From contig CAZAMB010000005.1 of NCBI GenBank assembly GCA_964486335.1, positions 100,008 through 164,007 on the forward strand: a stretch of 64,000 nucleotides of DNA. The letters run 5' to 3'. This DNA comes from an uncultured Phycisphaera sp. (GTDB taxonomy: Bacteria > Planctomycetota > Phycisphaerae > UBA1845). The notes under the pieces were generated by a model, which was not told the DNA's origin, did no database searches, and saw only the letters and a program-made list of their open reading frames with translations. This document shows positions 1 to 57,906 of this stretch, piece after piece (position 1 is the stretch's first letter; every line of letters begins with the position of its first letter). The position numbers and the translations under genes are program-made.

Positions 1-514
1 CCCGCAGATCAACCTCGTTGCGGTTCGCCTTCGCCCGATCGAACAGCCCCTTTGCCTTGCCATCGAACAGTATGCGGTATCCCAGCAATCCCTCCGGGGG
101 AAGCGACGCGAGTCTGCGCATGGCGAACCGCCGAGCGGATTCATAGAGACGTCCTCCGTCCCCGGCGCCGTCATGTCGCGGCACCAGCGTTCCCGCTCGG
201 TCATCGAGAACTCGTTGAAGCGAATCAATCGCCAGCTTCCAGTCGCGCCGGGCGATCGCGTCCTCCGCGCGACTCAGCAGATTGACGACCGGCGCCGAAG
301 TTTCGATCAGAATGGGTCCGTCGCCGCGCGCAAGTTCCGGCTCAAACCAGGTTCGAGCATCACCGCGAATGAGATCACCTGCCTCAACCTGGAGGACGGA
401 GGCTTCGCGCCGCTGGGCGACCGTCGAGGAATTCTGAATCGCGATGACGGCGACAATCGCCGACAAGAGCCTAACCAGCCGGAAAAAACTAAACTTTCTT
501 AAAGCGGCAATCAT
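1..514 (-). CDS. Hypothetical N-terminally anchored or secreted protein, 5' part only (gene runs off the left edge)
   Basis: Absent from the ORF track because there is no stop inside the window. Hand translation from the ATG at 514 (minus) gives MIAALRKFSFFRLVRLLSAIVAVIAIQNSS..., a hydrophobic anchor. It is followed by uninterrupted protein-like sequence (...LYESARRFAMRRLASLPPEGLLGYRILFDGKAKGLFDRAK...) down to position 1. Confidence 0.55.
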   Translation of the reverse strand, partial: MIAALRKFSFFRLVRLLSAIVAVIAIQNSSTVAQRREASVLQVEAGDLIRGDARTWFEPELARGDGPILIETSAPVVNLLSRAEDAIARRDWKLAIDSLQRVLDDRAGTLVPRHDGAGDGGRLYESARRFAMRRLASLPPEGLLGYRILFDGKAKGLFDRAKANRNEVDLR

Positions 515-850
515 CAGATGGAGATTCAACAACAGGCTCGAAACCCGGTCGACCACGATTCCCACGAACCGTCATCGCAAGGCGATTCGAACGACTCTTT
601 TACGCTCCAAACGGGTTATCGACCCGACCGAGCCGGGCAAAAACCCGACGGGCAGGCAGGAACTTTCGGCCCCGACTAGCCATCTTATCCGAACGGCCAC
701 GGCGACTCTACCAAACCGGATGGAATCCTGACGATTTGTTACCGGCGAGAGCCGAGGATCGAGCTTCGTAACAACAACGTAACGGACACTTGAATGGAAA
801 ACGCGCAGTCTGCGGAATGACTCTTGAATTGAAGAACTACGACTGCGATC

Positions 851-2275
851 TTACCGCCGACGCTTACGTTTGTCTTTCTTGTTGAGCACCCGTTTGCTCG
901 CGGTGGACCCCTTCTTGAAACTGGGCATGGCGCCGCCGGCCATCATTTTCGAGAACTGCGTGCCCATGCGAATGCGCTGAAGGAACGACTGCCCGCTCAT
1001 CATCTTCATCATCTGCCGCATCGGCTCGAACATCTTGACGAGTTGGCTGACTTCTTGCGGATCGGTACCCGAACCGCGTGCGATCCGCCGACGCCGTGAT
1101 GTGTCGATTATCTTGGGATTCTCGCGTTCTTTCGGCGTCATCGACTGAATCACCGCCTCGAATCTCACCATCTCGTCGTCGTCGATCTCCTCGTCGGGGA
1201 TCATCTCGGCCATGCCGGGGATTTTCTTGACAAGGTCCTTCATCGAACCCATCTGCCGCATCTTGCGAAGCTGGAACAGAAAGTCGTCGAGCGTGAACTT
1301 GCCCGTAGCCATCTTGGCTTCGAGCTTTTCGGCTTCGCCCTGGTCGTATTGCCGCTGAGCCTGCTCGACGAGTGTGAGAATGTCGCCCATGCCCAGAATG
1401 CGGCCCGCGACGCGGTCGGCATGGAACTCCTCGATCGCCTCCATCTTCTCGCCGACGCCGATGAACTTGATCGGTTTGCCGGTAACGCGTTTGACGGAGA
1501 GCGCCGCACCGCCGCGCGTGTCGCTGTCAAACTTGGTGAGAATCACGCCGTCGAGTTCGAGCCGCTCGTTGAACACTTTGGCCGTGTTCACCGCATCCTG
1601 ACCGGTCATCGCGTCGAGGACGAGGTAGACCTGCTGAGGACTGACGGCCTGCGCGACTTTTTGAAGCTCGCCCATCAGGTCTTCGTCGATGGCGAGACGT
1701 CCGGCCGTGTCGAGGATCACCACGTCGCGGTCAGTCTTTCGCGCTTCGGCGATTCCGTTACGGCACACCTTGACGGCGTTCTGGTGGCCGCGCTCGGTGT
1801 ACACCGGCACGCCGACCTGTCCGCCGATGACTTCGAGTTGGTCGATCGCCGCCGGGCGCTTGAGGTCGGCGGCCACGAGCAGCGGACGCTTCGCTCTCCC
1901 GAGCAGCATCTTGGCCATTTTTCCGCAGGTGGTGGTCTTGCCGGAGCCTTGCAGTCCGGCCATCAGCAATACCGTCGGACCGGGAGCGATGAAGGGAATC
2001 TTTGGATCGACCGGGCCCATGAGCCGGACGAGTTCGTCATGGACGATCTTGACCATGACCTCAGCGGGCTTGAGGGTCTTGATGACCTCGGCGCCGATCG
2101 CTTTCTGCTGGACTTCGTCGCAAAACTGCCGGGCGACTTCGAGATTGACGTCGGCTTCGAGCAGCGCGGTGCGAATCTCGCGCATCACCTCGGTGACGTT
2201 GGCTTCGGAGATCTTCCCCCGCCCGCGAAGTCCGCGAAACACGTCGTTGAGCTTGTTTGTCAGGACGTCAAACAT
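851..2275 (-). CDS. ffh: Signal recognition particle protein Ffh
   Basis: 474 aa. The N domain begins MFDVLTNKLNDVFRGLRGRGKISE. GTPase motifs GLQGSGKTTT and DTAGR are present. The methionine-rich M domain (MRQMGSMKDLVKKIPGM) and a basic C-terminal tail follow. Confidence 0.97.
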   Translation of the reverse strand: MFDVLTNKLNDVFRGLRGRGKISEANVTEVMREIRTALLEADVNLEVARQFCDEVQQKAIGAEVIKTLKPAEVMVKIVHDELVRLMGPVDPKIPFIAPGPTVLLMAGLQGSGKTTTCGKMAKMLLGRAKRPLLVAADLKRPAAIDQLEVIGGQVGVPVYTERGHQNAVKVCRNGIAEARKTDRDVVILDTAGRLAIDEDLMGELQKVAQAVSPQQVYLVLDAMTGQDAVNTAKVFNERLELDGVILTKFDSDTRGGAALSVKRVTGKPIKFIGVGEKMEAIEEFHADRVAGRILGMGDILTLVEQAQRQYDQGEAEKLEAKMATGKFTLDDFLFQLRKMRQMGSMKDLVKKIPGMAEMIPDEEIDDDEMVRFEAVIQSMTPKERENPKIIDTSRRRRIARGSGTDPQEVSQLVKMFEPMRQMMKMMSGQSFLQRIRMGTQFSKMMAGGAMPSFKKGSTASKRVLNKKDKRKRRR

Positions 2276-2329
2276 GGCGAGATGTTGTAGGTCGCGCCGA
2301 ACGCGGGGTCAAGCACGGTGACGCGGACG
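2223..2329. repeat. Direct repeat copy 1: first 53 nt of ffh plus ~55 nt upstream
   Basis: Hand alignment with 3106-3218. A 27-nt identical core (ccgcgaagtccgcgaaacacgtcgttg) is present. 49/53 positions are identical over the ffh coding start. The similarity is weaker, with indels, over the upstream part and ends at cgcggacg. Confidence 0.85.
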
Positions 2330-2411
2330 CAACGCTCACGAAATTGTCGTACAAGTTGATACGACGATCTCTGTTCCCTCGCATTCGCTCTGCTTGAGAG
2401 CAGTTGGCAAC

Positions 2412-2576
2412 CTACTTGGGAGATTTGCGCGGATGTTCCTGGCGGTTTCGAAGCTCGTCGGTCCTCTTGCGCCAGAACTCCAATTCCTGTTGCGGCGTCA
2501 TCCCGGCAATCTGGTTTCGCACATGCTCGGCTCCACGACGCTTCATTTCGACGCAATCAAATGTCTTTTTCTTCAT
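2412..2576 (-). CDS. Small charged ORF (54 aa) overlapping the PIN gene 3' end; candidate partner or antitoxin
   Basis: Below the 60-aa cut-off of the ORF track. Hand translation: MKKKTFDCVEMKRRGAEHVRNQIAGMTPQQELEFWRKRTDELRNRQEHPRKSPK, with TAG at 2412-2414. It overlaps the PIN ORF by 20 nt in another frame. Function is inferred from position only. Confidence 0.4.
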   Translation of the reverse strand: MKKKTFDCVEMKRRGAEHVRNQIAGMTPQQELEFWRKRTDELRNRQEHPRKSPK

Positions 2577-3030
2577 ACTCGATGACCTCGCGCGGCGAAT
2601 GAATCGCCAGAGCTGGAAGCCCCCGAAGCGAATTCACCGCATTATAGAGCGGAATCTTGCTGAAGTGAACAATGTGCTGAAAGTTCCAACTGACAATCGT
2701 TGGGCAACGCGAAACGGTCGCGAGTGCCACGTAGAGAGCATCATCGGCCGAGCGCCTGGTCAGAATTCCGGCGTCGAGGTACGCATCTCGCAGCGCAAGT
2801 GCTTCAGCCGTGGTCTCGACTACTCTGGCGAATGCGGCCATTTCCTCGAAAAGCCGCCGAACGTCCGGTGGCGCCGGCTCGATTTCCGCCTGCACCACGC
2901 CGGATGTGACAAGTTCAAACTTCCCGAGCCGAACCTGATCAAAGAAGAGGATGCTCGTCTCGGCGAATTCAGGATCGAATGGACCACCGAAAACCGACGT
3001 ATCCGCATAGATTCGAAGCGGCTCTTTCAA
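2557..3030 (-). CDS. PIN-domain protein (VapC-like toxin family)
   Basis: 157 aa. The N-terminus IYADTSVFGG carries the acidic residue typical of PIN strand 1. The C-terminal SWNFQHIV motif resembles PIN-like toxins I recognise. The start appears to be TTG at 3030, because an in-frame TGA lies at 3037-3039. Confidence 0.75.
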   Translation of the reverse strand: MKEPLRIYADTSVFGGPFDPEFAETSILFFDQVRLGKFELVTSGVVQAEIEPAPPDVRRLFEEMAAFARVVETTAEALALRDAYLDAGILTRRSADDALYVALATVSRCPTIVSWNFQHIVHFSKIPLYNAVNSLRGLPALAIHSPREVIEYEEKDI

Positions 3031-3158
3031 ATGGACTCATCCGGTTTTGAGGGTTCGTTTCTGACCTGCTCCCCCGGTGGGTTGGACCCTTGAGTCAATT
3101 CCCGTCCGCGAAGTCCGCGAAACACGTCGTTGTGTTTGTTTGTCAGGGCGTCGAACAT
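3027..3158 (-). pseudogene. Duplicated ffh 5' remnant forming a 43-codon leader ORF upstream of the PIN gene
   Basis: The ATG at 3158 gives MFDALTNKHNDVFRGLRGR (compare Ffh MFDVLTNKLNDVFRGLRGR). It then diverges to ELTQGSNPPGEQVRNEPSKPDESI and a stop. The stop TGA (3027-3029) overlaps the PIN TTG start (3028-3030) in the string ATTTGA. Confidence 0.6.
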
Positions 3159-3218
3159 TAAGGAATGTTGTACGGCCGCACCGAGCCAATGGTCAAGATG
3201 CTATAGGGGGCGCGGACG
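3106..3218. repeat. Direct repeat copy 2 of the ffh start and upstream region
   Basis: See 2223-2329. The offset is 883 nt and gap-free through the start codon. Confidence 0.85.
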
Positions 3219-3258
3219 AAAATCAGCAGGACACGGTCGCGGTGATTATTCCGGATGA

Positions 3259-4077
3259 TTAATGGTCCGGCGCTTTCAGTTTCGTGACCGCCGGTTCAAA
3301 GGGATTCCCACACTCGGAACACCGATGTTCGGGAAGTCCGAACAGGTCATATCCGCACTTGTTGCAGTGCCCCGGCGGGTAGATCGGGCGATAGCGGTTT
3401 CGAAAAAACACGACCACGGAAATCACGGCGAATGGTACAAGCAAAAAAGGGAACACGGAATAAGAAACGTAATAGAGGGCATCTCGCAGCGTAACGATTC
3501 CGCGAAAAAACGCCAAATGCCACCGCCATGAACTGAGGCACAATCCCAACAACGCAAATGCACTATTCCATGCGACCGATTTGATCGAACGAAGCGGCCA
3601 ACAAAGTATACCGAGTCCCAACGTATAAACTCCAAGAAAGAGACTCGTCAATAGGTACGTATGAATGTCGAGTAAGAGTTGTCCCGCCGCGCCGCTGACG
3701 ACGCGAAATCCGACACCATACAAGAACGCCGCGAGAAGGCGACGTCGCCACAGGAACATCAAGGCCGACCGGGTGAATCTCCCAAGACGCGCAAAGAGGC
3801 GCAGATAAACCGATTCGTCGAACATGCCGGGAAAGTGATTGGAGCGACTCTCGATCCCGCGTCGACGGGCTTCGGCTTGCAAAATGCCGAGTATTTCTTG
3901 CGAAAGATCAGACGGATCGGCCAACCCGCGCACCACGTCGTCGTCGGTTGCATTTCGCCATGCCTCGACGAGTTCGCTTTGACTTTGGTCGCCTATCAAA
4001 GTCTGACCCATTCGGCGTCGGCATCGGTACTTAACGAGGAAGTGCGGCACCGATTCTCTCTTCGTTTGGTACGCCAT
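3259..4077 (-). CDS. Hypothetical multi-pass membrane protein with C-terminal zinc-ribbon
   Basis: 272 aa. Several hydrophobic segments are present. The C-terminus CNKCGYDLFGLPEHRCSECGNPF is a CxxC...CxxC motif. No family recognised. Confidence 0.6.
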   Translation of the reverse strand: MAYQTKRESVPHFLVKYRCRRRMGQTLIGDQSQSELVEAWRNATDDDVVRGLADPSDLSQEILGILQAEARRRGIESRSNHFPGMFDESVYLRLFARLGRFTRSALMFLWRRRLLAAFLYGVGFRVVSGAAGQLLLDIHTYLLTSLFLGVYTLGLGILCWPLRSIKSVAWNSAFALLGLCLSSWRWHLAFFRGIVTLRDALYYVSYSVFPFLLVPFAVISVVVFFRNRYRPIYPPGHCNKCGYDLFGLPEHRCSECGNPFEPAVTKLKAPDH

Positions 4078-4180
4078 CGTTAATGAAAACGTCTATGGCC
4101 ATCTTGAGTTCTCGAAAGACCTGTTGTCGCCCTTGAAGGGAACATGGACAACGCTAGGCGCTACATGATATGATGAATAC

Positions 4181-4450
4181 GTGCGCTCAGCAAAGAAATC
4201 TTCGGACATGGAGTGGATGGTCCGTCTCAAGCTCGAAGCCCTTGATGAGGGCGGCTATCTGGCTACGAGTCCGGATATTCAGGGCCTGCTCGCGCAGGGA
4301 TCCACCATCGCCGAGACCATGGAAATCGCCCGTGACGTGGCTCGGAAGATTATCGAAAGCTGCCTCGCCCACGGCGATCCACTTCCCAAACCCAAGCGAC
4401 GCAAGACCCACTCCCTGCAAGCCGTGGTTCCCGTCACGGTGGTCGCATGA
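4181..4450 (+). CDS. hicB: HicB-family antitoxin
   Basis: 89 aa. The segment YLATSPDIQGLLAQGSTIAETMEIARDVARKIIE matches the HicB/UPF0150 N-terminal fold pattern. It overlaps hicA by 4 nt. The true start may be an internal Met (MEWMVRL). Confidence 0.75.
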   Translation: MRSAKKSSDMEWMVRLKLEALDEGGYLATSPDIQGLLAQGSTIAETMEIARDVARKIIESCLAHGDPLPKPKRRKTHSLQAVVPVTVVA

Positions 4451-4653
4451 CCTATCGCGAACTGGTTCGCAAGCTTCGTGCGGCCGGTTTCCAATTTGAC
4501 CGTTCCGCCGCCGGCAGCCACGAAATCTGGTATCACCCCGTAAAGCGACTTCGCACAACGGTTCCCAACCATCCTGGTGATCTTCCAACGGGTACGCTTC
4601 GCGCCATCATTCGACAGACCGGGCTGACGAAGAGAGAGTTTGAATCGTTGTGA
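4447..4653 (+). CDS. hicA: HicA-family mRNA interferase toxin
   Basis: 68 aa. MTYRELVRKLRAAGFQFDRSAAGSHEIWYHP...VPNHPGDLPTGTLRAIIRQTGL is a typical HicA sequence (dsRBD-like, with the GSH motif). Confidence 0.85.
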   Translation: MTYRELVRKLRAAGFQFDRSAAGSHEIWYHPVKRLRTTVPNHPGDLPTGTLRAIIRQTGLTKREFESL

Positions 4654-4843
4654 TCCTGGTCAAGCGATTGCCGTCAACGCTTACAGCATCTCTCGCAACT
4701 TGCGTTTCGCCAAACCTCGACGAACTTGTCGTGCATTTGTTCGACCATCAATGCCTGACCCAAGCGGCGTCATCATCAGCGCCTGTCGTCCATGGGGCAC
4801 GCCCGGCCAGAGTTGAAATGGCCGACCACGCGCGGAGAAGATT

Positions 4844-5923
4844 CTATTCACAGCGACCGGCTGCGGCGATTCGCTCTTTAAGATCGGCGACTTCGCGTTC
4901 CAGATCCTTGATTCGCTTGATCCACTCCGGCAGCCGAGGAAACACGGCCATGGCCCGCTTGGCTTCGTCGATCGGCATGGCCGGCGATCCGAAAACCTTG
5001 GCACCCGGTTCAATGTTCCCCGAGATGCCCGACTGCGCCGCGACCGTGGCGTCATCACCGATCGACAAGTGGCCGGCAACGCCGACCTGGCCCGCGAGCG
5101 TGACGTGTCGTCCGACGGTCACCGATCCCGCCACGCCGATCAATCCCACGAAAAGGCAATCCGGGCCGACCTTGCTCCCGTGGCCGATGACGATCACGTT
5201 GCCGAACTTGGTTCCGGCGCCGATTTCCGTTTTGCCGAGCGTCGCGCGGTCGATTGTGCAATTCGCACCGATTTCGACATCCTCGCCAATGACCGCGCGG
5301 CCGACCTGCGGAATCTTGACCCACTTCTGTCCATGAGGTGCGTACCCGAGGCCGTCTTCGCCGATAACCGAACCCGCGTGAATGGTCACGCGATGACTGA
5401 TAAGCGATCCGTCGTATACGACGACATTGGGAAACAGCGTGCATCGATGGCCGATGCTCGCGCCTTCGCCGATGTAACATCCCGGGTAGATCGTGCAATC
5501 ATCGCCGATGGACACTCCGGCCTCGATGGTCACGCCGGCGGCAATGTTCGCGTTCTTCCCAACGGTAGCGGTCGGGTCGATGGTCGCTCCCTCGGAGATT
5601 CCCCATCGGGGATGCCGCCGATGGCCGTGCAACGTGATGATGGCAACGGTAATCGCGCCGTAAGGGTCAGCGCACCTTAGCACGGGCAATCCGGGTGGAA
5701 CTTCAACTTTCTCACCCACCACCACCGCCGACGCCTTGGTTACGCCCAGCCGATCGAGGTACTTCGGATTGGCAAGGAAGCTGATTTCGCCTTCACGGGC
5801 ATCGTCGAGCGTGTTGACCGCCGTGATTGTTGTATCCGAACCATCCAACCTGGCGGAAAAACCATTTGCAATGAGCACGTGGCAGAGTTCAGATAATTGC
5901 ATCAGGTTCCCTAGTTGGCCCAA
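4844..5923 (-). CDS. lpxD: UDP-3-O-acylglucosamine N-acyltransferase
   Basis: 359 aa. An N-terminal LpxD-type domain is followed by a long run of hexapeptide repeats (left-handed beta-helix) and a C-terminal helix. Confidence 0.9.
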   Translation of the reverse strand: MGQLGNLMQLSELCHVLIANGFSARLDGSDTTITAVNTLDDAREGEISFLANPKYLDRLGVTKASAVVVGEKVEVPPGLPVLRCADPYGAITVAIITLHGHRRHPRWGISEGATIDPTATVGKNANIAAGVTIEAGVSIGDDCTIYPGCYIGEGASIGHRCTLFPNVVVYDGSLISHRVTIHAGSVIGEDGLGYAPHGQKWVKIPQVGRAVIGEDVEIGANCTIDRATLGKTEIGAGTKFGNVIVIGHGSKVGPDCLFVGLIGVAGSVTVGRHVTLAGQVGVAGHLSIGDDATVAAQSGISGNIEPGAKVFGSPAMPIDEAKRAMAVFPRLPEWIKRIKDLEREVADLKERIAAAGRCE

Positions 5924-6270
5924 ACTTCGCGTTTTATAGGTCGCAAGTCATGCGATCGGCTAATTGTACGGAGTTCGCGCAAATACTGTCAATCTCCAGA
6001 GGAATGGTCATGCGTCCGGAAATGGCGAGCCTGGACATCAGCTGGAAGTCACCGCCCGGCGAAGTTCAGGCAAACAGTGGTAAGACCGTTCCTCACATCC
6101 TATGATGGTTCGTTTGCCGCGAGCCGGGAGAGGTTCGCCGTTTCGGATCAGGGCGTCACAGTCATCGGTTTTGTTCAGTGTGTTCAATTCGACAGGTTAC
6201 GAGTGACGGTTGGGCGTCTGAATCGCTCTTTGTGGGGCGCGGCCCAACGTTTGTCTGAAGGTACATTCGC

Positions 6271-7821
6271 GTGATTTTGTTTTGGATGACTTCGATCGCT
6301 TTCGTTGTTTCCACCTTGGCGCTCGCGCTCTACGGGCTGCACCTTTATGCGCTGCTATACCTTTTTCGACGGCGCGCATCCCAGAAGAACAATGAACAGC
6401 AACGGACGATAGAGACTTACGAAAAAGATCGAAAGCCCGACGATTGGCCGGTCGTCACCACGCAGATTCCGATCTACAACGAAAAAGATGTCATTCATCG
6501 CGTATTGACGGCGGTTGCCGGCATGGACTATCCGCCGGGAAGGCACGAGATTCAGGTACTCGATGACAGCGACGACGACACGAAGTTCATCGTCGACGAT
6601 CTTGTCGCGAGCCTTCGAGCACGCGGCGCGGATATCAAGGTGATTCGCCGCCCAACCCGAATGGCGTACAAGGCCGGAGCGCTCGCGCACGGACTAACGA
6701 CCGCGCGGGGAACGTATGTCGCCGTGTTCGACGCTGATTTTGTTCCGCCCAAGGGATTCCTTCGCACGGCCATTCCGCTGATCGATTCGACGCCGAACCT
6801 TGCCTGCATACAGGGTCGGTGGGCGCACCTCAACCGAGATGAATCCTGGCTGACCGAATCCCAGGCGCTGGGCATTGACGGCCATTTCGCGATTGAGCAG
6901 GGCGCCCGCGCGTGGAACGGACTCATGATGAATTTCAACGGAACCGCCGGCGTATGGCGGAAAGCCGCCATTGACGACCCCAGCGTAGGGGGCTGGAGCG
7001 GGGACACGCTGACGGAGGACCTAGATCTCTCGTATCGCGCTCAGCTGGCCGGCTGGAAACTGGACTATTGCCTGAATCTCCCCTGCCCGGCCGAACTGCC
7101 CAACTCGGTCGGCGCGCTCAAAAGCCAACAGCGCCGCTGGGCGACAGGGTCCATCCAGGTGGCGATCAAGCTGCTGCCGAGAATCTGGCGCGCGCCCGTT
7201 TCGATGGCCGAGAAACTCGAGGCCACGCTGCATCTGACGCATTATTCGGTCGCCGTCTGGATGCTGATCCTGGCGCTGGTCGCGCGCCCGATGCTGCTGG
7301 CGATCGTCGACGCCCGATTGTTCACGCAATGGGCGTGGTTTGCCTGGGGCGCCATTTATTTCTCGGCGTTGGCGCCGTCTCTCGTTTATGTCTACGCCCG
7401 ATACAGTCTCGAAGGCCGATGGTCTGGCATCCGGACCATTCCGGGCATGATGATTCTGGGATGCGGATTCTGTGTCAACAACACGCTGGCGGTCCTTCGC
7501 GGATTGACCTTGCAGGGCGGGGAGTTCGTGCGAACGCCAAAGTCCGGTAGCGTCGGAACAACAGTAAAGCGATCCAGCTATTCAACAATGCAATCCAACA
7601 TGTGGCTCATCGAAATCGGTTTGGGGCTTTATTCGTTCGCTTCCTTTGTAATCTATCTCACGGCGGAATTACGAGCGTTCAGCGTATTCCTTTTGCTCTA
7701 CGCGATCGGACTCACTCTGACCGGATGGCTTTCTCGCCCCGAACGATTCGGAAAGGTCCTTTTGCAAACCGATATCGTCGGAAGTGCGGCGTCCATGCAA
7801 CCCGCCGTCGTGGAGCCATGA
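6271..7821 (+). CDS. Family 2 glycosyltransferase, processive (cellulose-synthase-like) type, membrane-embedded
   Basis: 516 aa. Motifs present: DDSDD, FDADF, TEDLDLS and QQRRWATGS (the D,D,D,QxxRW signature). Transmembrane segments flank the catalytic domain. Confidence 0.85.
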   Translation: MILFWMTSIAFVVSTLALALYGLHLYALLYLFRRRASQKNNEQQRTIETYEKDRKPDDWPVVTTQIPIYNEKDVIHRVLTAVAGMDYPPGRHEIQVLDDSDDDTKFIVDDLVASLRARGADIKVIRRPTRMAYKAGALAHGLTTARGTYVAVFDADFVPPKGFLRTAIPLIDSTPNLACIQGRWAHLNRDESWLTESQALGIDGHFAIEQGARAWNGLMMNFNGTAGVWRKAAIDDPSVGGWSGDTLTEDLDLSYRAQLAGWKLDYCLNLPCPAELPNSVGALKSQQRRWATGSIQVAIKLLPRIWRAPVSMAEKLEATLHLTHYSVAVWMLILALVARPMLLAIVDARLFTQWAWFAWGAIYFSALAPSLVYVYARYSLEGRWSGIRTIPGMMILGCGFCVNNTLAVLRGLTLQGGEFVRTPKSGSVGTTVKRSSYSTMQSNMWLIEIGLGLYSFASFVIYLTAELRAFSVFLLLYAIGLTLTGWLSRPERFGKVLLQTDIVGSAASMQPAVVEP

Positions 7822-7854
7822 TCGGCAGATCGTCGATTCAGTTCGGAAATATCG

Positions 7855-8964
7855 TTAGTCTTTTTCGGAAGCCTGGATTGGTACGGGGAAGTTCTTTCGC
7901 AACAATCCGGACGGCGCCTGTCCGACCGTAACATAGCCGTCTCTTTCGATCTTCCCCAGAATCGCGTTGAGACTGGCCATGGCGTCGCTGAATCGCTGGA
8001 GAGAAAGGACGGCGGCTTCGTAAAGGCGGGGATCGCGGACAAGAAGTCCCGCCGTTCCCTTTCCTTCTTCCACCTGTCGAAGCGTGCTCGCGAGGCTCCG
8101 GGTTCCATTGTCAAGATTGTCGAGCACCTGGTTGAGCTTTCCAAAGGAACGGTCGAGGTTGGCTTCCGTCGTGTCAATCCCTGTGTTGAGATTGTCGGAA
8201 AGCCTCTGGGTCTGCGATCTCCACAGTTCCATCGTTTCCTTCAATGTTTCCGCGGACGCCTTCAGGTCATGCACGACGCCCTTCACGTCGCCTTGCACAT
8301 TCACATCACCGAGCACGACATTGAGATTGGCTACAAGCTGGTCGATTCGCTCGACGACGGTCGAAAGGTTCGGCGTTGTGGTCGCCCCGGGTTGTTCCAC
8401 CTCGGCAACCGTCCGCCGTTCAAGCAGGCGATTCATGTTGCGAGCCACCGGCGTCGCCTCGCCCGCGAGGTCTCCGATGTTGTTGATCATTCGCTGGACG
8501 GAATCCACCATATCGCGCGTGATGAACTCTCCGATCATGCTGCGCATTTCGCCGTGGATCTGCGCATCTTCCTTGGGAAGCAGCTTTCGATCGCCGCCCG
8601 GTTCAACGAAGATCTCCACCCGACCGACACCGAAGCCGAGCGTCGCGCCGTACAAGCGGGCGACCGCGCCCTGCGGAATCGAATACTGCGACTTGATCCC
8701 GGCCACCACGACGACGCCGAGATCAGGCCGCTCCGGATCGCCGAATTGAAGATCCTTGACGCGTCCGATTTCAACCCCGTTGAGCTGGATTGGCGTGCCT
8801 TGCGAGATGCCCCGCAATTCGCGCGCGCCGGTGATTTCCAGTCGCCACTCGTTGCCGCCCAGCCACTCCGGCGTTTCACCGAACCACGCCATCAATGTCG
8901 CCAGCACGATGAGCGACGCCGCCACGAATGTCCCCACGGCCATGTTGCGCTTGGTTTCAGTCAT
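7855..8964 (-). CDS. mlaD: MCE/MlaD-family protein
   Basis: 369 aa. An N-terminal transmembrane segment is followed by an MCE domain (GISQGTPIQLNGVEIGRVKDL). It is last in the operon with the ABC ATPase and permease. Confidence 0.85.
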   Translation of the reverse strand: MTETKRNMAVGTFVAASLIVLATLMAWFGETPEWLGGNEWRLEITGARELRGISQGTPIQLNGVEIGRVKDLQFGDPERPDLGVVVVAGIKSQYSIPQGAVARLYGATLGFGVGRVEIFVEPGGDRKLLPKEDAQIHGEMRSMIGEFITRDMVDSVQRMINNIGDLAGEATPVARNMNRLLERRTVAEVEQPGATTTPNLSTVVERIDQLVANLNVVLGDVNVQGDVKGVVHDLKASAETLKETMELWRSQTQRLSDNLNTGIDTTEANLDRSFGKLNQVLDNLDNGTRSLASTLRQVEEGKGTAGLLVRDPRLYEAAVLSLQRFSDAMASLNAILGKIERDGYVTVGQAPSGLLRKNFPVPIQASEKD

Positions 8965-42309: not shown

Positions 42310-42381
42310 GCGGGTGTAGCTCAGTGGTAGAGCGTCACGTTGCCAACGTGAATGTCGAGGGTTCGAGCCCCTTCACCCGCT
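42310..42381 (+). tRNA. tRNA-Gly (anticodon GCC)
   Basis: GCGGGTG-TA-GCTC-AGTGGTA-GAGC-G-TCACG-TTGCCAA-CGTGA-ATGTC-GAGGG-TTCGAGC-CCCTT-CACCCGC-T. The cloverleaf was folded by hand. The T-stem has one G-T pair. Confidence 0.92.
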
Positions 42382-42489
42382 GTTCCTGACGCGCCGTACC
42401 ACGAAGCGACACAGGCGTGCAACCTTTGACTCCAACGCTAGTTACAGCGACCGATTCTCGGCTTTCCTAGATTCTCATTGCCTGGTCGC
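42336..42489 (+). repeat. Island direct repeat, left copy (tRNA-Gly anticodon arm to 3' end plus 108 nt downstream)
   Basis: Gap-free hand alignment with 53567-53720. The tRNA part is 41/46 identical and the downstream part is about 79/108 identical. Confidence 0.85.
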
Positions 42490-42557
42490 TTTTGCCAGAA
42501 AGTGACCGGAATGGACCGCAGTGGACGCCCATTCGTGCAAGGTCTAGTGCGAATTGA
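42396..42557 (+). pseudogene. Decayed copy of the 5' part of the island HTH gene
   Basis: In the frame equivalent to 53627, the translation is VPRSDTGVQPLTPTLVTATDSRLS*ILIAWSLLPESDRNG... The intact copy reads MPASDIAVQLLTPARVTTTDSCLSQVYISWSRFELSKRAG... An in-frame TAG lies at 42468-42470. Confidence 0.45.
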
Positions 42558-53284: not shown

Positions 53285-53566
53285 CGATCATTCTGTTCGC
53301 TGTTGTCCAGTGAACGAAACAGGCCGAGGTGTTATGGGATTCCGTGGCCTGTGGTCAATGGTATTGGATAAGGCAACGAATCACTCGTTTCGAGGTGAAT
53401 CGGACGTTTAAAGTGACGAATCCTGACTTGATCCTACTCGATTGCTCCAATGCTGGGATGAATACTCATTTAACAGATCGCAAATGGCTCTTGGAAAGAA
53501 ACGTGGAAGGGGTTTCCGCATTCTCCGTAACTCTTTGGTTTTGCGCGGTTTAGAACTCGCTGCGTT

Positions 53567-53612
53567 CATGTTGCCTACGTAAATGTCGAGGGTTCGAGTT
53601 CCTTCACCCGCT
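53567..53612 (+). pseudogene. tRNA-Gly 3' fragment (anticodon arm to 3' end), non-functional
   Basis: 41/46 identical to 42336-42381. The anticodon-stem and loop changes are not compensatory. The region 5' of it cannot form acceptor or D arms. Confidence 0.75.
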
Positions 53613-53720
53613 TTGTTTGACGCGCCGTGCCAGCGAGTGACATCGCGGTCCAACTCTTGACCCCAGCGCGAGTTACGACGACCGATTCTTGCCTTTCCCA
53701 GGTTTACATTTCATGGTCGC
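53567..53720 (+). repeat. Island direct repeat, right copy
   Basis: See 42336-42489. The offset is 11231 nt with no gaps over 154 nt. Confidence 0.85.
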
Positions 53721-53863
53721 GTTTCGAGCTGTCTAAGCGGGCGGGCGTCCCGTACAGCGGAATCCACCGCTTTATCAGCTACGACCGCGACCTGACCCTG
53801 ACAACGGCGTCACGGCTGGCCGACGTGCTGGGGCTGGAATTGCGCCCTGCAAAAGGAAAGTAG
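53627..53863 (+). CDS. Small helix-turn-helix protein (Xre/excisionase-like position)
   Basis: 78 aa from the GTG at 53627. FELSKRAGVPYSGIHRFISYDRDLTLTTASRLADVLGLEL is a typical HTH. It ends 8 nt before the integrase start. Confidence 0.55.
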   Translation: MPASDIAVQLLTPARVTTTDSCLSQVYISWSRFELSKRAGVPYSGIHRFISYDRDLTLTTASRLADVLGLELRPAKGK

Positions 53864-56931: not shown

Positions 56932-57906
56932 ATGCGACTGGGGACGATGGGTCTGATTGGTCTGTTCACGATCCTCGCGGGAAAAGCCGACGGCGGACTC
57001 ATCATCACGCTCGACGCGCGGGATTCCGCGGGGATGCCATTTGCGTCGCCCGCGACGGCGGGCACAACCGCGCGAGTAGGCATCCTGCTTTCAACCGATG
57101 GTGCGGATGATCCGCTTCCCGACCTGCGCGGCCTCCAGTTCGATTTCTCGGGCACAAGTTCGAGCATTTTGGTGAATTCGTTCGCATGGTCGGTCAATGA
57201 GGATGTCTATGCATTTCGCACGACGGCGCCGCCGAATGTTTCGGCGATTACGCTGCTCTTGGCGAGTTCATCAACGCTGCTGACGTTGACGGGAACCCCG
57301 GTGCAGGTCGCGTCGGTGGACATCACGGTGAATGGAACCGGCACACTTGATGTGCGTAACACGGCCGCGCCTGACACCAACACTTCGGCCTGGTTTCGCG
57401 CCGGATTCGCGACGTCGATGGAATTCTCACTGATTCACGGAAACCTCACGGGCGGCACGCTGGACATCGCGGTTCCCGGGACGGTTGATCCCGGTCCCGT
57501 TGGTGGTGGCGGAGGCGGCGGTTCGGGAGGCGGTGATCCGGCGACAACCGATTCCGACTCCGACGGCGTGGTCGACGCCGACGATGCGTTTCCCGACGAT
57601 CCAACCGAAACGATGGACACCGACAACAACGGCGTCGGCAACAATAACGATCCCGACGACGACGGCGACGGTGTGGACGACGCAGACGATGCGTTTCCGA
57701 TCGATCCTGCGGAAACGACCGACACCGACGGCGACGGCATCGGCGACAACGCCGATCCGGATACAGGCGGAGGCATCATCAACAATCCGCCCCCCAACTC
57801 GGCGCCGCGCATGTGCGGTTTCGGCATGGTCGGCCCGACCTTGCTTTTATTTGTCAGTCTCGCCGCGGTCCGATCGCAACGGTACCGGCCGAACAGACAC
57901 GGCTGA
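56932..57906 (+). CDS. Secreted protein with thrombospondin type-3-like Ca-binding repeats and C-terminal hydrophobic anchor
   Basis: A signal peptide is present. The repeats are DSDSDGVVDADDAFPDDPTETMDTDNNGVGNNNDPDDDGDGVDDADDAFPIDPAETTDTDGDGIGDNADPD. The tail is MCGFGMVGPTLLLFVSLAAVRSQRYR. Confidence 0.75.
   Translation: MRLGTMGLIGLFTILAGKADGGLIITLDARDSAGMPFASPATAGTTARVGILLSTDGADDPLPDLRGLQFDFSGTSSSILVNSFAWSVNEDVYAFRTTAPPNVSAITLLLASSSTLLTLTGTPVQVASVDITVNGTGTLDVRNTAAPDTNTSAWFRAGFATSMEFSLIHGNLTGGTLDIAVPGTVDPGPVGGGGGGGSGGGDPATTDSDSDGVVDADDAFPDDPTETMDTDNNGVGNNNDPDDDGDGVDDADDAFPIDPAETTDTDGDGIGDNADPDTGGGIINNPPPNSAPRMCGFGMVGPTLLLFVSLAAVRSQRYRPNRHG

Follow-up and report, generated by a model that had tools for sequence, protein, structure and literature searches.

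A predicted PIN toxin cassette between two copies of the ffh start in Phycisphaerae, probably joined by recombination with the DNA of a relative

Introduction

Homology-facilitated illegitimate recombination is known, reportedly, from the work of de Vries and Wackernagel and of Prudhomme et al. This process has been proposed for the orphan 'displacement' arrays found at type VI secretion system (T6SS), Rhs and contact-dependent inhibition (CDI) loci, and the immunity-gene arrays there hold alleles that came into one genome from different strains and not by duplication (PMC5361080). Here we analyze a locus to which these arrays are among the closest described systems. It lies in a stretch of 64,000 nucleotides from an uncultured Phycisphaera sp. 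(assembly GCA_964486335.1, contig CAZAMB010000005.1, positions 100,008 to 164,007 of the forward strand), called the window below, and consists of a predicted PIN-domain toxin gene and a small partner gene, sORF54, placed between two copies of the start of ffh, the gene for the SRP54-type GTPase. The upstream copy, ffh', is cut off after its first codons and now forms the beginning of a short leader open reading frame (ORF). From the pattern of differences between such copies we conclude that the ffh'-cassette-ffh structure probably arose by recombination with the DNA of a relative. The leader would now be translationally coupled to the cassette and a leaderless promoter reused. Literature searches returned no description of toxin-antitoxin cassettes at ffh, nor of a leader of this type.

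Results

The start of ffh is repeated on both sides of the PIN cassette

All features named in a first-pass annotation of this DNA are present in the window, all on the minus strand, and their order on that strand from 5' to 3' is g272, promoter, leader ORF, PIN gene, sORF54, spacer, second promoter and ffh. The working ffh gene (851..2275, minus strand; 474 aa, amino acids) was identified from the ORF list and Pfam, with full SRP54_N, SRP54 and SRP_SPB matches at E = 1e-23 to 1e-72, and its product shares 73-92% aa identity with Ffh of Phycisphaerae metagenome-assembled genomes. The repeat copies were delimited by repeat search, blastn and MAFFT. The downstream copy (2218..2333, minus strand) comprises about 58 nt 5' of ffh together with the first 57 nt of the gene, and the upstream copy (3101..3220, minus strand) adjoins g272, which is the native position according to the g272-promoter-ffh order of three related loci (L088, L089 and L091; L numbers denote the fetched loci). 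Between sORF54 and the second promoter lies a 99-nt spacer (2313..2411, minus strand; from the sORF54 stop) with weak hairpins only.

The two copies are clearly related. The repeat search aligned 2218-2289 with 3101-3172 without gaps (72 nt, 86% identity), blastn extended the match to 97 nt (81%, E = 1e-18), and gapped alignment with MAFFT revealed weaker likeness out to about 2333/3220, i.e. to about -58, so that the total is about 97-115 nt. The figures given in the first-pass annotation are all correct, namely 49/53 identical positions in the coding part (4 differences), a 27-nt identical core (positions 27-53) and a stop/start overlap at the string ATTTGA. The alignment is also significant, as the local alignment score of the repeat was 102 compared with 18.0 +/- 2.2 (maximum 28) in 500 dinucleotide-preserving shuffles; in the whole window, just three other direct self-matches reach significance. 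The spacer and the flanks of the window's promoters have no match (for the spacer, by blast) in any fetched locus, Rfam gave nothing at E <= 1 over positions 1-6500, and exact-sequence look-ups of the window's PIN protein and Ffh returned only the same contig in the Logan assembly of run SRR14787580 (L001), where the arrangement is identical; they yielded no empty site of the same species.

This recurrence also bears on a technical explanation, namely that two strain variants of the ffh start were wrongly joined during metagenome assembly. The window does come from a metagenome-assembled genome, and its copies share the 27-nt core, but the explanation is hardly credible, because the ffh'(+57)-spacer-PIN junction is beyond what k-mer jumping could create between genomes that lack it, and the structure is found again both in the independent assembly L001 and in ENA, JGI and Logan contigs of other samples.

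Stranded ffh starts and cassettes in front of ffh recur in related loci

Ffh-based scans of species-representative genomes and metagenomes yielded 43 loci of Phycisphaerae/Planctomycetota with 73-92% Ffh identity. A g272-based metagenome scan found no relatives, and g272 homologues surfaced only through the Ffh and PIN routes. Three loci (L088, L089 and L091) represent the empty site, with a g272 homologue, one promoter and ffh, and with neither a PIN gene nor a second copy of the ffh start. These relatives, with g272 beside ffh but without the PIN gene, are therefore single-copy, and the comparison supports the earlier proposal that the cassette was inserted at, or recombined into, the ffh 5' end with duplication. 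The filled site corresponding to the window's was found in three contigs from three data sources (L163, L164 and L165), each carrying a g272 homologue, a promoter, ffh' broken at +57, a PIN gene and an sORF. Compared with L089, L163 contains a 650-nt PIN-sORF insertion and a duplication of exactly ffh -1..+59. L168, whose contig begins at the promoter, likewise has a promoter, ffh' broken at +57, PIN and sORF, and its PIN protein is the closest to that of the window (76% identity). These four contigs (from ENA, JGI and Logan) were obtained from different samples with different assemblers.

Copies of the ffh start also accompany cassettes of other kinds. In L007, a 267-nt copy (96% identical) is followed by hicA-hicB, and in L094 a copy of the same type with an in-frame 102-nt deletion is found around hicA-hicB. 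In L085/L086, a copy of 97-136 nt is followed by DUF433, DUF4258 and DUF2283 genes. Each cassette type was also found adjoining ffh with no ffh' in the available sequence, a donor-like state: hicA-hicB in L003, L087 and L090 (abutting the ATG in L003 and L090), a DUF4258/DUF2283-like pair ending in TAA-C-ATG in L022 (assigned by similarity to the Pfam-confirmed pair of L085), PIN-sORF 34 nt from the ffh ATG in L095, whose contig has only about 100 nt 5' of PIN, and sORF-promoter-ffh with PIN deleted in L169. L003 differs from the 94% identical L021 solely in that 2 kb of toxin-antitoxin genes replace a 155-nt promoter region. Taken together, these loci show that in this clade the region 5' of ffh is a hot spot of toxin-antitoxin cassettes, with stranded ffh starts arising repeatedly as a by-product.

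The claim that a toxin gene is placed directly upstream of an essential gene is true of the window, given the predicted nature of the toxin, and the situation is more pronounced in L163. There (1400-1435) ffh has no promoter motif of its own and starts 12 nt after the sORF stop, and it appears to depend on transcription through the leader-PIN-sORF operon.

Other rearrangements were observed 5' of ffh. In the closest relative, L082, a 107-nt unit is repeated 3.1 times in tandem (1-331, 95% matches) directly 5' of the ffh promoter; at the equivalent position, L092 and L093 carry another repeat, of about 133 nt. In L085, an IS200-like Y1 transposase gene (7361-7864; Pfam Y1_Tnp, E = 1e-28) lies directly 5' of the ffh promoter, within a segment where L085 departs from L086, the two being 97-99.8% identical elsewhere.

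The two copies look like alleles from different lineages

If the stranded copy had decayed neutrally after a duplication in place, about 61% of its differences from the gene would be non-synonymous. In six loci, the differences between copy and gene amounted to 39 synonymous and 8 non-synonymous changes (pN/pS = 0.064), which gives P = 5e-10 against neutral decay. When only the three clearly independent events were counted (window, L085 and L007), the ratio was 19:3 (P = 6e-6). Such a synonymous bias indicates that the copies diverged while both were parts of working ffh genes, i.e. in different lineages. The states of individual copies agree with this, as do PIN identities that run counter to those of ffh (given below). 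In the window, the copies differ at five sites, and the upstream copy has the clade state (that of L082 or L083) at four of them. L168 combines an upstream promoter that matches the one of L089 at 41/41 positions with a downstream promoter of a different, L021-like type.

These data can be set against an insertion made in place at ffh +57, whether transposition-like or by template switching, in which about 115 nt of the target were copied and the upstream copy has since decayed. Such an event would leave direct repeats flanking the insert, as observed, and it would agree with the window's copies being closest to each other and with the hicBA cassettes in the window and in L009, which are flanked by 66-78-nt direct repeats of unrelated targets. 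We nevertheless regard it as improbable, since neutral decay of a pseudo-copy could not produce the 39:8 bias and since L168 combines two different promoter types. Furthermore, the repeat search and ORF list revealed no terminal inverted repeats at the cassette ends and no transposase in or next to the cassette, there is no recombinase or integrase among the ORFs of window positions 1-6500, and the duplications vary in length from 57 to 267 nt, ending at +57, about +97 and +267 in different cassettes. From these features, a target duplication made by a transposase is unlikely. The target duplication of the first-pass annotation is accordingly to be divided: insertion and duplication both stand, and manufacture in place probably does not, the copies being probably alleles joined by recombination.

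Site-specific recombination would offer another way of generating the repeats, which would then be attL/attR-like sequences around a common core, left by a decayed or trans-mobilised integrative element or by an integron cassette at a secondary site. The 27-nt identical core, the +57 boundary common to the window, L163 and L168, and the presence of PIN-sORF homologues in an attC array (GCCTAAC...GTTAGGC) of L167 and between 51-nt repeats in L166 all fit this idea. It is, however, a rather remote explanation, because no integrase was found among the ORFs of positions 1-6500, no attC-like fold or R''/R' boxes follow sORF54, integron insertion is established to proceed without target duplication, and the ends of other ffh cassettes at +97 and +267 leave no common crossover site.

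Finally, we considered a single ancient insertion that was inherited vertically, with precise repeat-mediated losses in most descendants and with gene conversion keeping ffh' similar to ffh. The identical +57 junction and the g272 synteny across clades with 80-88% ffh nucleotide identity are what this history would predict, as is the co-linearity of PIN-sORF-ffh in L163 and L095 at about 79% nucleotide identity. As an account of the whole it seems unlikely, however: it would need many independent precise losses, gene conversion yields no synonymous bias, and the upstream copies have lineage-typical promoters and synonymous states. The identities of PIN and ffh are also incongruent: those of PIN are 68% (window-L163), 68% (window-L095) and 82% (L163-L095), compared with ffh nucleotide identities of 81%, 84% and 79% for the same pairs. 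A single ancient insertion may still be part of the history.

Both predicted promoters are conserved, and the leader stop overlaps the PIN start

A promoter-like element precedes each copy of the ffh start. That of the working gene (2284..2312, minus strand), read from the sequence and from comparative conservation, consists of TTGACC (2312-2307), a 17-nt spacer and TACAAC (2289-2284), and that of the upstream copy (3167..3196, minus strand), read from the sequence, consists of TTGACC (3196-3191), an 18-nt spacer and TACAAC (3172-3167). In both window copies, the end of the -10 box is 8 nt from the ATG, of ffh in one case and of the leader in the other, and the string from the -10 box to the ATG of the upstream copy (TACAACATTCCTTAATG) is identical in L082. 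The motif TTGACN-N17/18-TANA[AG]N, ending 6-10 nt 5' of the ffh ATG, was present in 26/43 related loci compared with 0.1% of random positions, and a TACTAA variant of the -10 box was found in L088, L089 and L091 and in the upstream copies of L163 and L168. Both boxes are perfect in both window copies, and the surrounding and intervening sequence has diverged by about 40%, with indels, which argues that both promoters of the window are in use. The 8 nt that separate the -10 box from the ATG show no purine-rich motif and leave no room for a Shine-Dalgarno-like sequence, so that the ffh mRNA would be leaderless or nearly so. Among strong promoter motifs in the window that are followed by a long ORF, three of eight have the start codon 6-8 nt after the -10 box.

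The leader ORF ffh' (3027..3158, minus strand; 43 codons, from the ORF list and sequence) begins at the ATG at 3158 with Ffh codons 1-19 (3158-3102), MFDALTNKHNDVFRGLRGR, and continues with 24 unrelated codons (3101-3030). Its TGA (3029-3027) overlaps the TTG start codon of PIN (3030-3028). This stop-start overlap recurs in each of the three PIN lineages, as TTGA in the window and as ATGA in L163 and L168, even though the leaders differ in length (43 codons in the window, 23 and 36 codons in L163 and L168, respectively). Measured from the leader ATG, the PIN start lies at a distance of 128, 110 or 68 nt in the three lineages. All three values equal 2 modulo 3, so that the frame was preserved through length changes of 18 and 42 nt. 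Similarly, the ffh' copy of L094, with its in-frame deletion, stops 1 nt before the hicA ATG, as does that of L007. From the overlaps and in-frame length changes, translation of the fossil leader as far as the first cassette gene appears to be under selection, and the PIN gene is probably expressed from the copy of the ffh promoter by translational coupling to the Ffh-derived leader, as had been proposed. No attenuation-type structure was found by DNA folding or Rfam. No terminator was called between sORF54 and the second promoter, which makes read-through from the cassette into ffh likely.

The cassette encodes a VapC-like PIN protein and a small basic partner

The PIN gene (2557..3030, minus strand; TTG start) encodes a VapC-like protein of 157 aa, identified by Pfam, AlphaFold and Foldseek. 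The Pfam PIN match (PF01850) of the window's protein, at 19.4 bits, is under the cut-off of 23.6, but the family as a whole (>1,300 proteins) matches at E <= 0.01 in 23/26 sampled members (best 8.6e-07), and relatives carry the NCBI name VapC. The AlphaFold2 model has a pLDDT (predicted local distance difference test) of 91 and a pTM (predicted template modelling score) of 0.86, and the top Foldseek matches in the PDB were FitB (2h1c), VapC1 (5k8j), PAE0151 and VapC2/15/20, with template modelling (TM) scores of 0.55-0.69. Of the catalytic positions, E49 and D97 show no variation in the family and D10 almost none; the fourth is occupied throughout by an asparagine, N116, with H119 after it, and is not acidic. 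Searched as a profile, the family had no relative among PDB sequences; it had no phage match and only three distant matches on Leptospira plasmids.

The partner gene sORF54 (2412..2576, minus strand) encodes a basic 54-aa protein, the putative antitoxin, and overlaps the 3' end of PIN by 20 nt. Its 71 homologues are 54-68 aa long, none of them named and none with a Pfam domain, and the same 20-nt overlap between a PIN homologue and the following sORF was present in all readable contexts (L095, L162, L163, L166, L167 and L168). NCBIfam gave no match for PIN, sORF54, g272, HicB or HicA. In L169 (ENA ERZ1292630, 1684-2052), PIN is reduced to about 30 nt and the small ORF is intact (80% aa identity) 5' of the ffh promoter; the Ffh of this contig is 93% identical to that of the window over the 116 residues available. 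An orphan sORF of this kind is the usual decay pattern of a toxin-antitoxin pair. L089 likewise retains hicB without hicA.

Relatives of the module were also seen away from ffh. L167 (ENA ERZ25039459 contig_3011) carries at 1788-7500 an array of three PIN-sORF pairs, RelB/YafQ and DUF4258, with the cassettes separated by canonical attC-like sites (GCCTAAC ... GTTAGGC), so that the module also circulates as an integron cassette or in clusters of attC sites lacking integrases (CALIN). In L166 (Logan SRR13378642), copies of a 51-nt repeat (22-72, 811-861 and 1581-1632; 88-97% identical), all with a stop codon at their end, enclose two cassettes, PIN-sORF and DUF433-DUF5615, and a 48-nt fragment of the PIN 3' end is duplicated at 862-909. 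A candidate attC site after sORF54 in the window was not supported, as the 91 nt fold no better than shuffles (z = -0.5, -1.2) and contain no GCCTAAC/GTTAGGC pair.

A hicBA cassette lies between two copies of the g272 start

The gene g272/g250 (3259..4011, minus strand), which marks the ancestral g272-ffh junction, encodes an uncharacterized 250-aa membrane and zinc-ribbon-like protein. Homologues with 48-52% aa identity stand directly 5' of ffh or ffh' in L088, L089 and L163-165, and the start at 4011 is backed by L089 and by a Logan gene call. A second case of a cassette between repeats was observed 1 kb away from the first, where hicB (4181-4450) and hicA (4447-4653) lie on the opposite strand (4181..4653, plus strand; Pfam HicA_toxin match in a Logan gene call) between two copies of the g272 start. 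The downstream copy (3948..4025, minus strand) covers -14..+64 of g272 and the upstream copy lies at 4700..4777 (minus strand), both found by repeat search and tested with shuffles: over 78 nt they are 74% identical, with a score of 56 compared with 17.7 +/- 2.4 in shuffles. The upstream copy is in frame, reading (L)GQALMVEQMHDKFVEVWRNA where g272 has MGQTLIGDQSQSELVEAWRNA, and the in-frame reading at 4700-4777 is LGQALMVEQMHDKFVEVWRNA. The window's hicBA shares 70-85% aa identity with the cassettes of L002, L003, L009, L087 and L089. A -10-like box ends 6 nt upstream of the GTG start of hicB at 4181 (element 4145-4174). In L009, hicBA is surrounded by a 66-nt direct repeat (1531-1596 and 2390-2455; 92%) that resembles the 3' end of another hicB gene (cf. 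L007 5032-5119).

Two further repeats of the window are unrelated to the ffh case: a 105-nt tandem duplication at 57548-57757 (77-78% identity), and a 159-nt direct repeat (78%) at 42335-42493 and 53566-53724, whose copies are 11 kb apart.

Discussion

In the recombination that we favor, the ancestral order would have been g272, promoter and ffh, and the donor would have been a related lineage that already carried PIN-sORF before its own ffh. When the donor DNA recombined into the site, one crossover would have been homologous, within ffh, and the other junction illegitimate, at +57 of the resident ffh. The resident promoter and the first 57 nt of ffh would thereby be left stranded upstream, and the working gene would now be preceded by the imported cassette together with another promoter and another ffh start. 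The same product would result if a circular fragment were inserted in the Campbell manner. Once formed, an allele with ffh on both flanks could spread to further relatives by ordinary double crossovers, and such spread by homologous recombination would explain both the common +57 break and the lineage-typical upstream promoters. For expression, the upstream promoter would fire at or beside the ATG and give a leaderless mRNA, ribosomes would read the 43-codon leader and end at the TGA overlapping the TTG of PIN, and reinitiation would follow, first on PIN and next on the partner ORF that overlaps it. Transcription of ffh would start at the gene's own promoter copy, probably with a contribution from read-through. 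In this way, the cassette would borrow the expression signals of an essential housekeeping gene and would be placed where an imprecise deletion would harm ffh.

Several points weigh against this reconstruction. First, the window taken alone has 3 synonymous and 2 non-synonymous differences, which makes it powerless for the test, and its copies are each other's nearest relatives (52/57 identical positions compared with at most 48/57 for any orthologue), so that, judged by the window alone, the duplication may have been made in place in this lineage. Second, donor-like arrangements occur (L003, L022, L095 and L169), but no donor with an intact PIN-sORF-promoter-ffh arrangement near that of the window was found, and no direct donor-recipient pair; mosaic analysis of the window's ffh gave only a marginal signal, with the first 140 nt or so closer to clade C (L022) than the remainder of the gene. 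Third, the +57 break shared by three lineages could reflect a site preference instead, and the +57-to-PIN spacers of the window, L168 and L095 are not significantly alike. With regard to expression and function, a strict sigma-70 consensus scan did not call the ffh promoters, in which TACAAC has no final T, and the promoter call therefore rests on comparative conservation; it is only the geometry that suggests an ffh mRNA with little or no leader in these Phycisphaerae; and PIN and sORF54 are a putative VapC-like toxin-antitoxin module of reverse order, judged by the fold, the arrangement of the genes and the orphan sORF.

If recombination with a relative's DNA is the origin of the structure, the locus provides a concrete and repeatable route by which tiny toxin-antitoxin cassettes could enter and persist without a recombinase. 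Recombination at the conserved start of an essential gene would carry the cassettes along, and the displaced promoter and first codons would be reused as a leader. This is relevant to annotation, where truncated 'Ffh-like' ORFs and duplicated promoters are easily dismissed as assembly noise, and to the regulation of essential genes, as in L163, where ffh without a promoter of its own would be transcribed through a toxin operon. The position next to an essential gene may also stabilize selfish cassettes, and the clade offers several natural replicates of the situation. As a more speculative extension, which we consider doubtful, the stranded ffh 5' fragment would be a portable homology arm and the ffh start a recombinase-free, integron-like platform for capture and expression in this clade. 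If so, RecA could insert ffh'-cassette-ffh into any relative with a conserved ffh start, the cassette could loop out as a circle and re-insert in the Campbell manner, and an arriving cassette would be wired at once to the leaderless promoter and start codon of an essential gene.

Comparison with known systems

The module itself resembles VapBC type II modules in several respects: its predicted PIN fold is nearest to FitB/VapC, the acidic residues D10, E49 and D97 are conserved, and a toxin-type gene is tightly coupled to a small partner gene. Unlike in VapBC, the order in the window is reversed, the toxin gene coming first and the partner gene overlapping it by 20 nt; none of the antitoxin domains RHH, AbrB, PHD and MerR is present in the partner, which falls in no named family; the PIN protein scores under the Pfam cut-off and has N116 at the fourth catalytic position; and no promoter of its own is visible for the cassette.

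The arrangement of the repeats recalls the partial gene duplications that integrative elements leave as attL/attR at tRNA, tmRNA and gene-end targets, since there, too, the repeats are a piece of a conserved gene, left stranded at one end and completing the gene at the other. The window, in contrast, has no integrase and a cargo of only about 0.9 kb, and the ffh repeats vary in length, the independent insertions having no common core. Integron cassettes are similar in that the PIN-sORF module occurs between attC sites in L167 and in that promoterless cassettes rely on an external promoter, whereas the window has neither attC nor IntI and integron insertion duplicates no target.

With translational coupling through leader ORFs, the ffh cassettes share the stop-start overlaps (TTGA or ATGA) that join the leader to the first cassette gene, and with leaderless mRNAs they share a -10 box 8 nt from the ATG. 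The leader of the window differs in being, by its sequence, a fossil of the N-terminus of an essential gene and not a dedicated regulatory peptide.

The T6SS, Rhs and CDI arrays follow the same logic in three ways. A conserved gene segment anchors the incoming DNA while the other end joins illegitimately, displaced resident fragments persist as orphans, and the same argument, that the alleles come from different strains, applies to both. The ffh case, with a mechanism deduced here from sequence, would be a mirror image of these arrays: its anchor is the downstream gene, ffh, its orphan is a promoter and 5' end and not a 3' toxin tip, its cargo consists of toxin-antitoxin cassettes, and its orphan would stay active as promoter and leader of the new cassette. 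In conclusion, the whole is a variant of known processes, to which the present analysis adds that the structure is recurrent in the clade, that the copies look allelic and not duplicated in place, and that the stranded fragment seems to have been retained in a working role, as promoter and leader.

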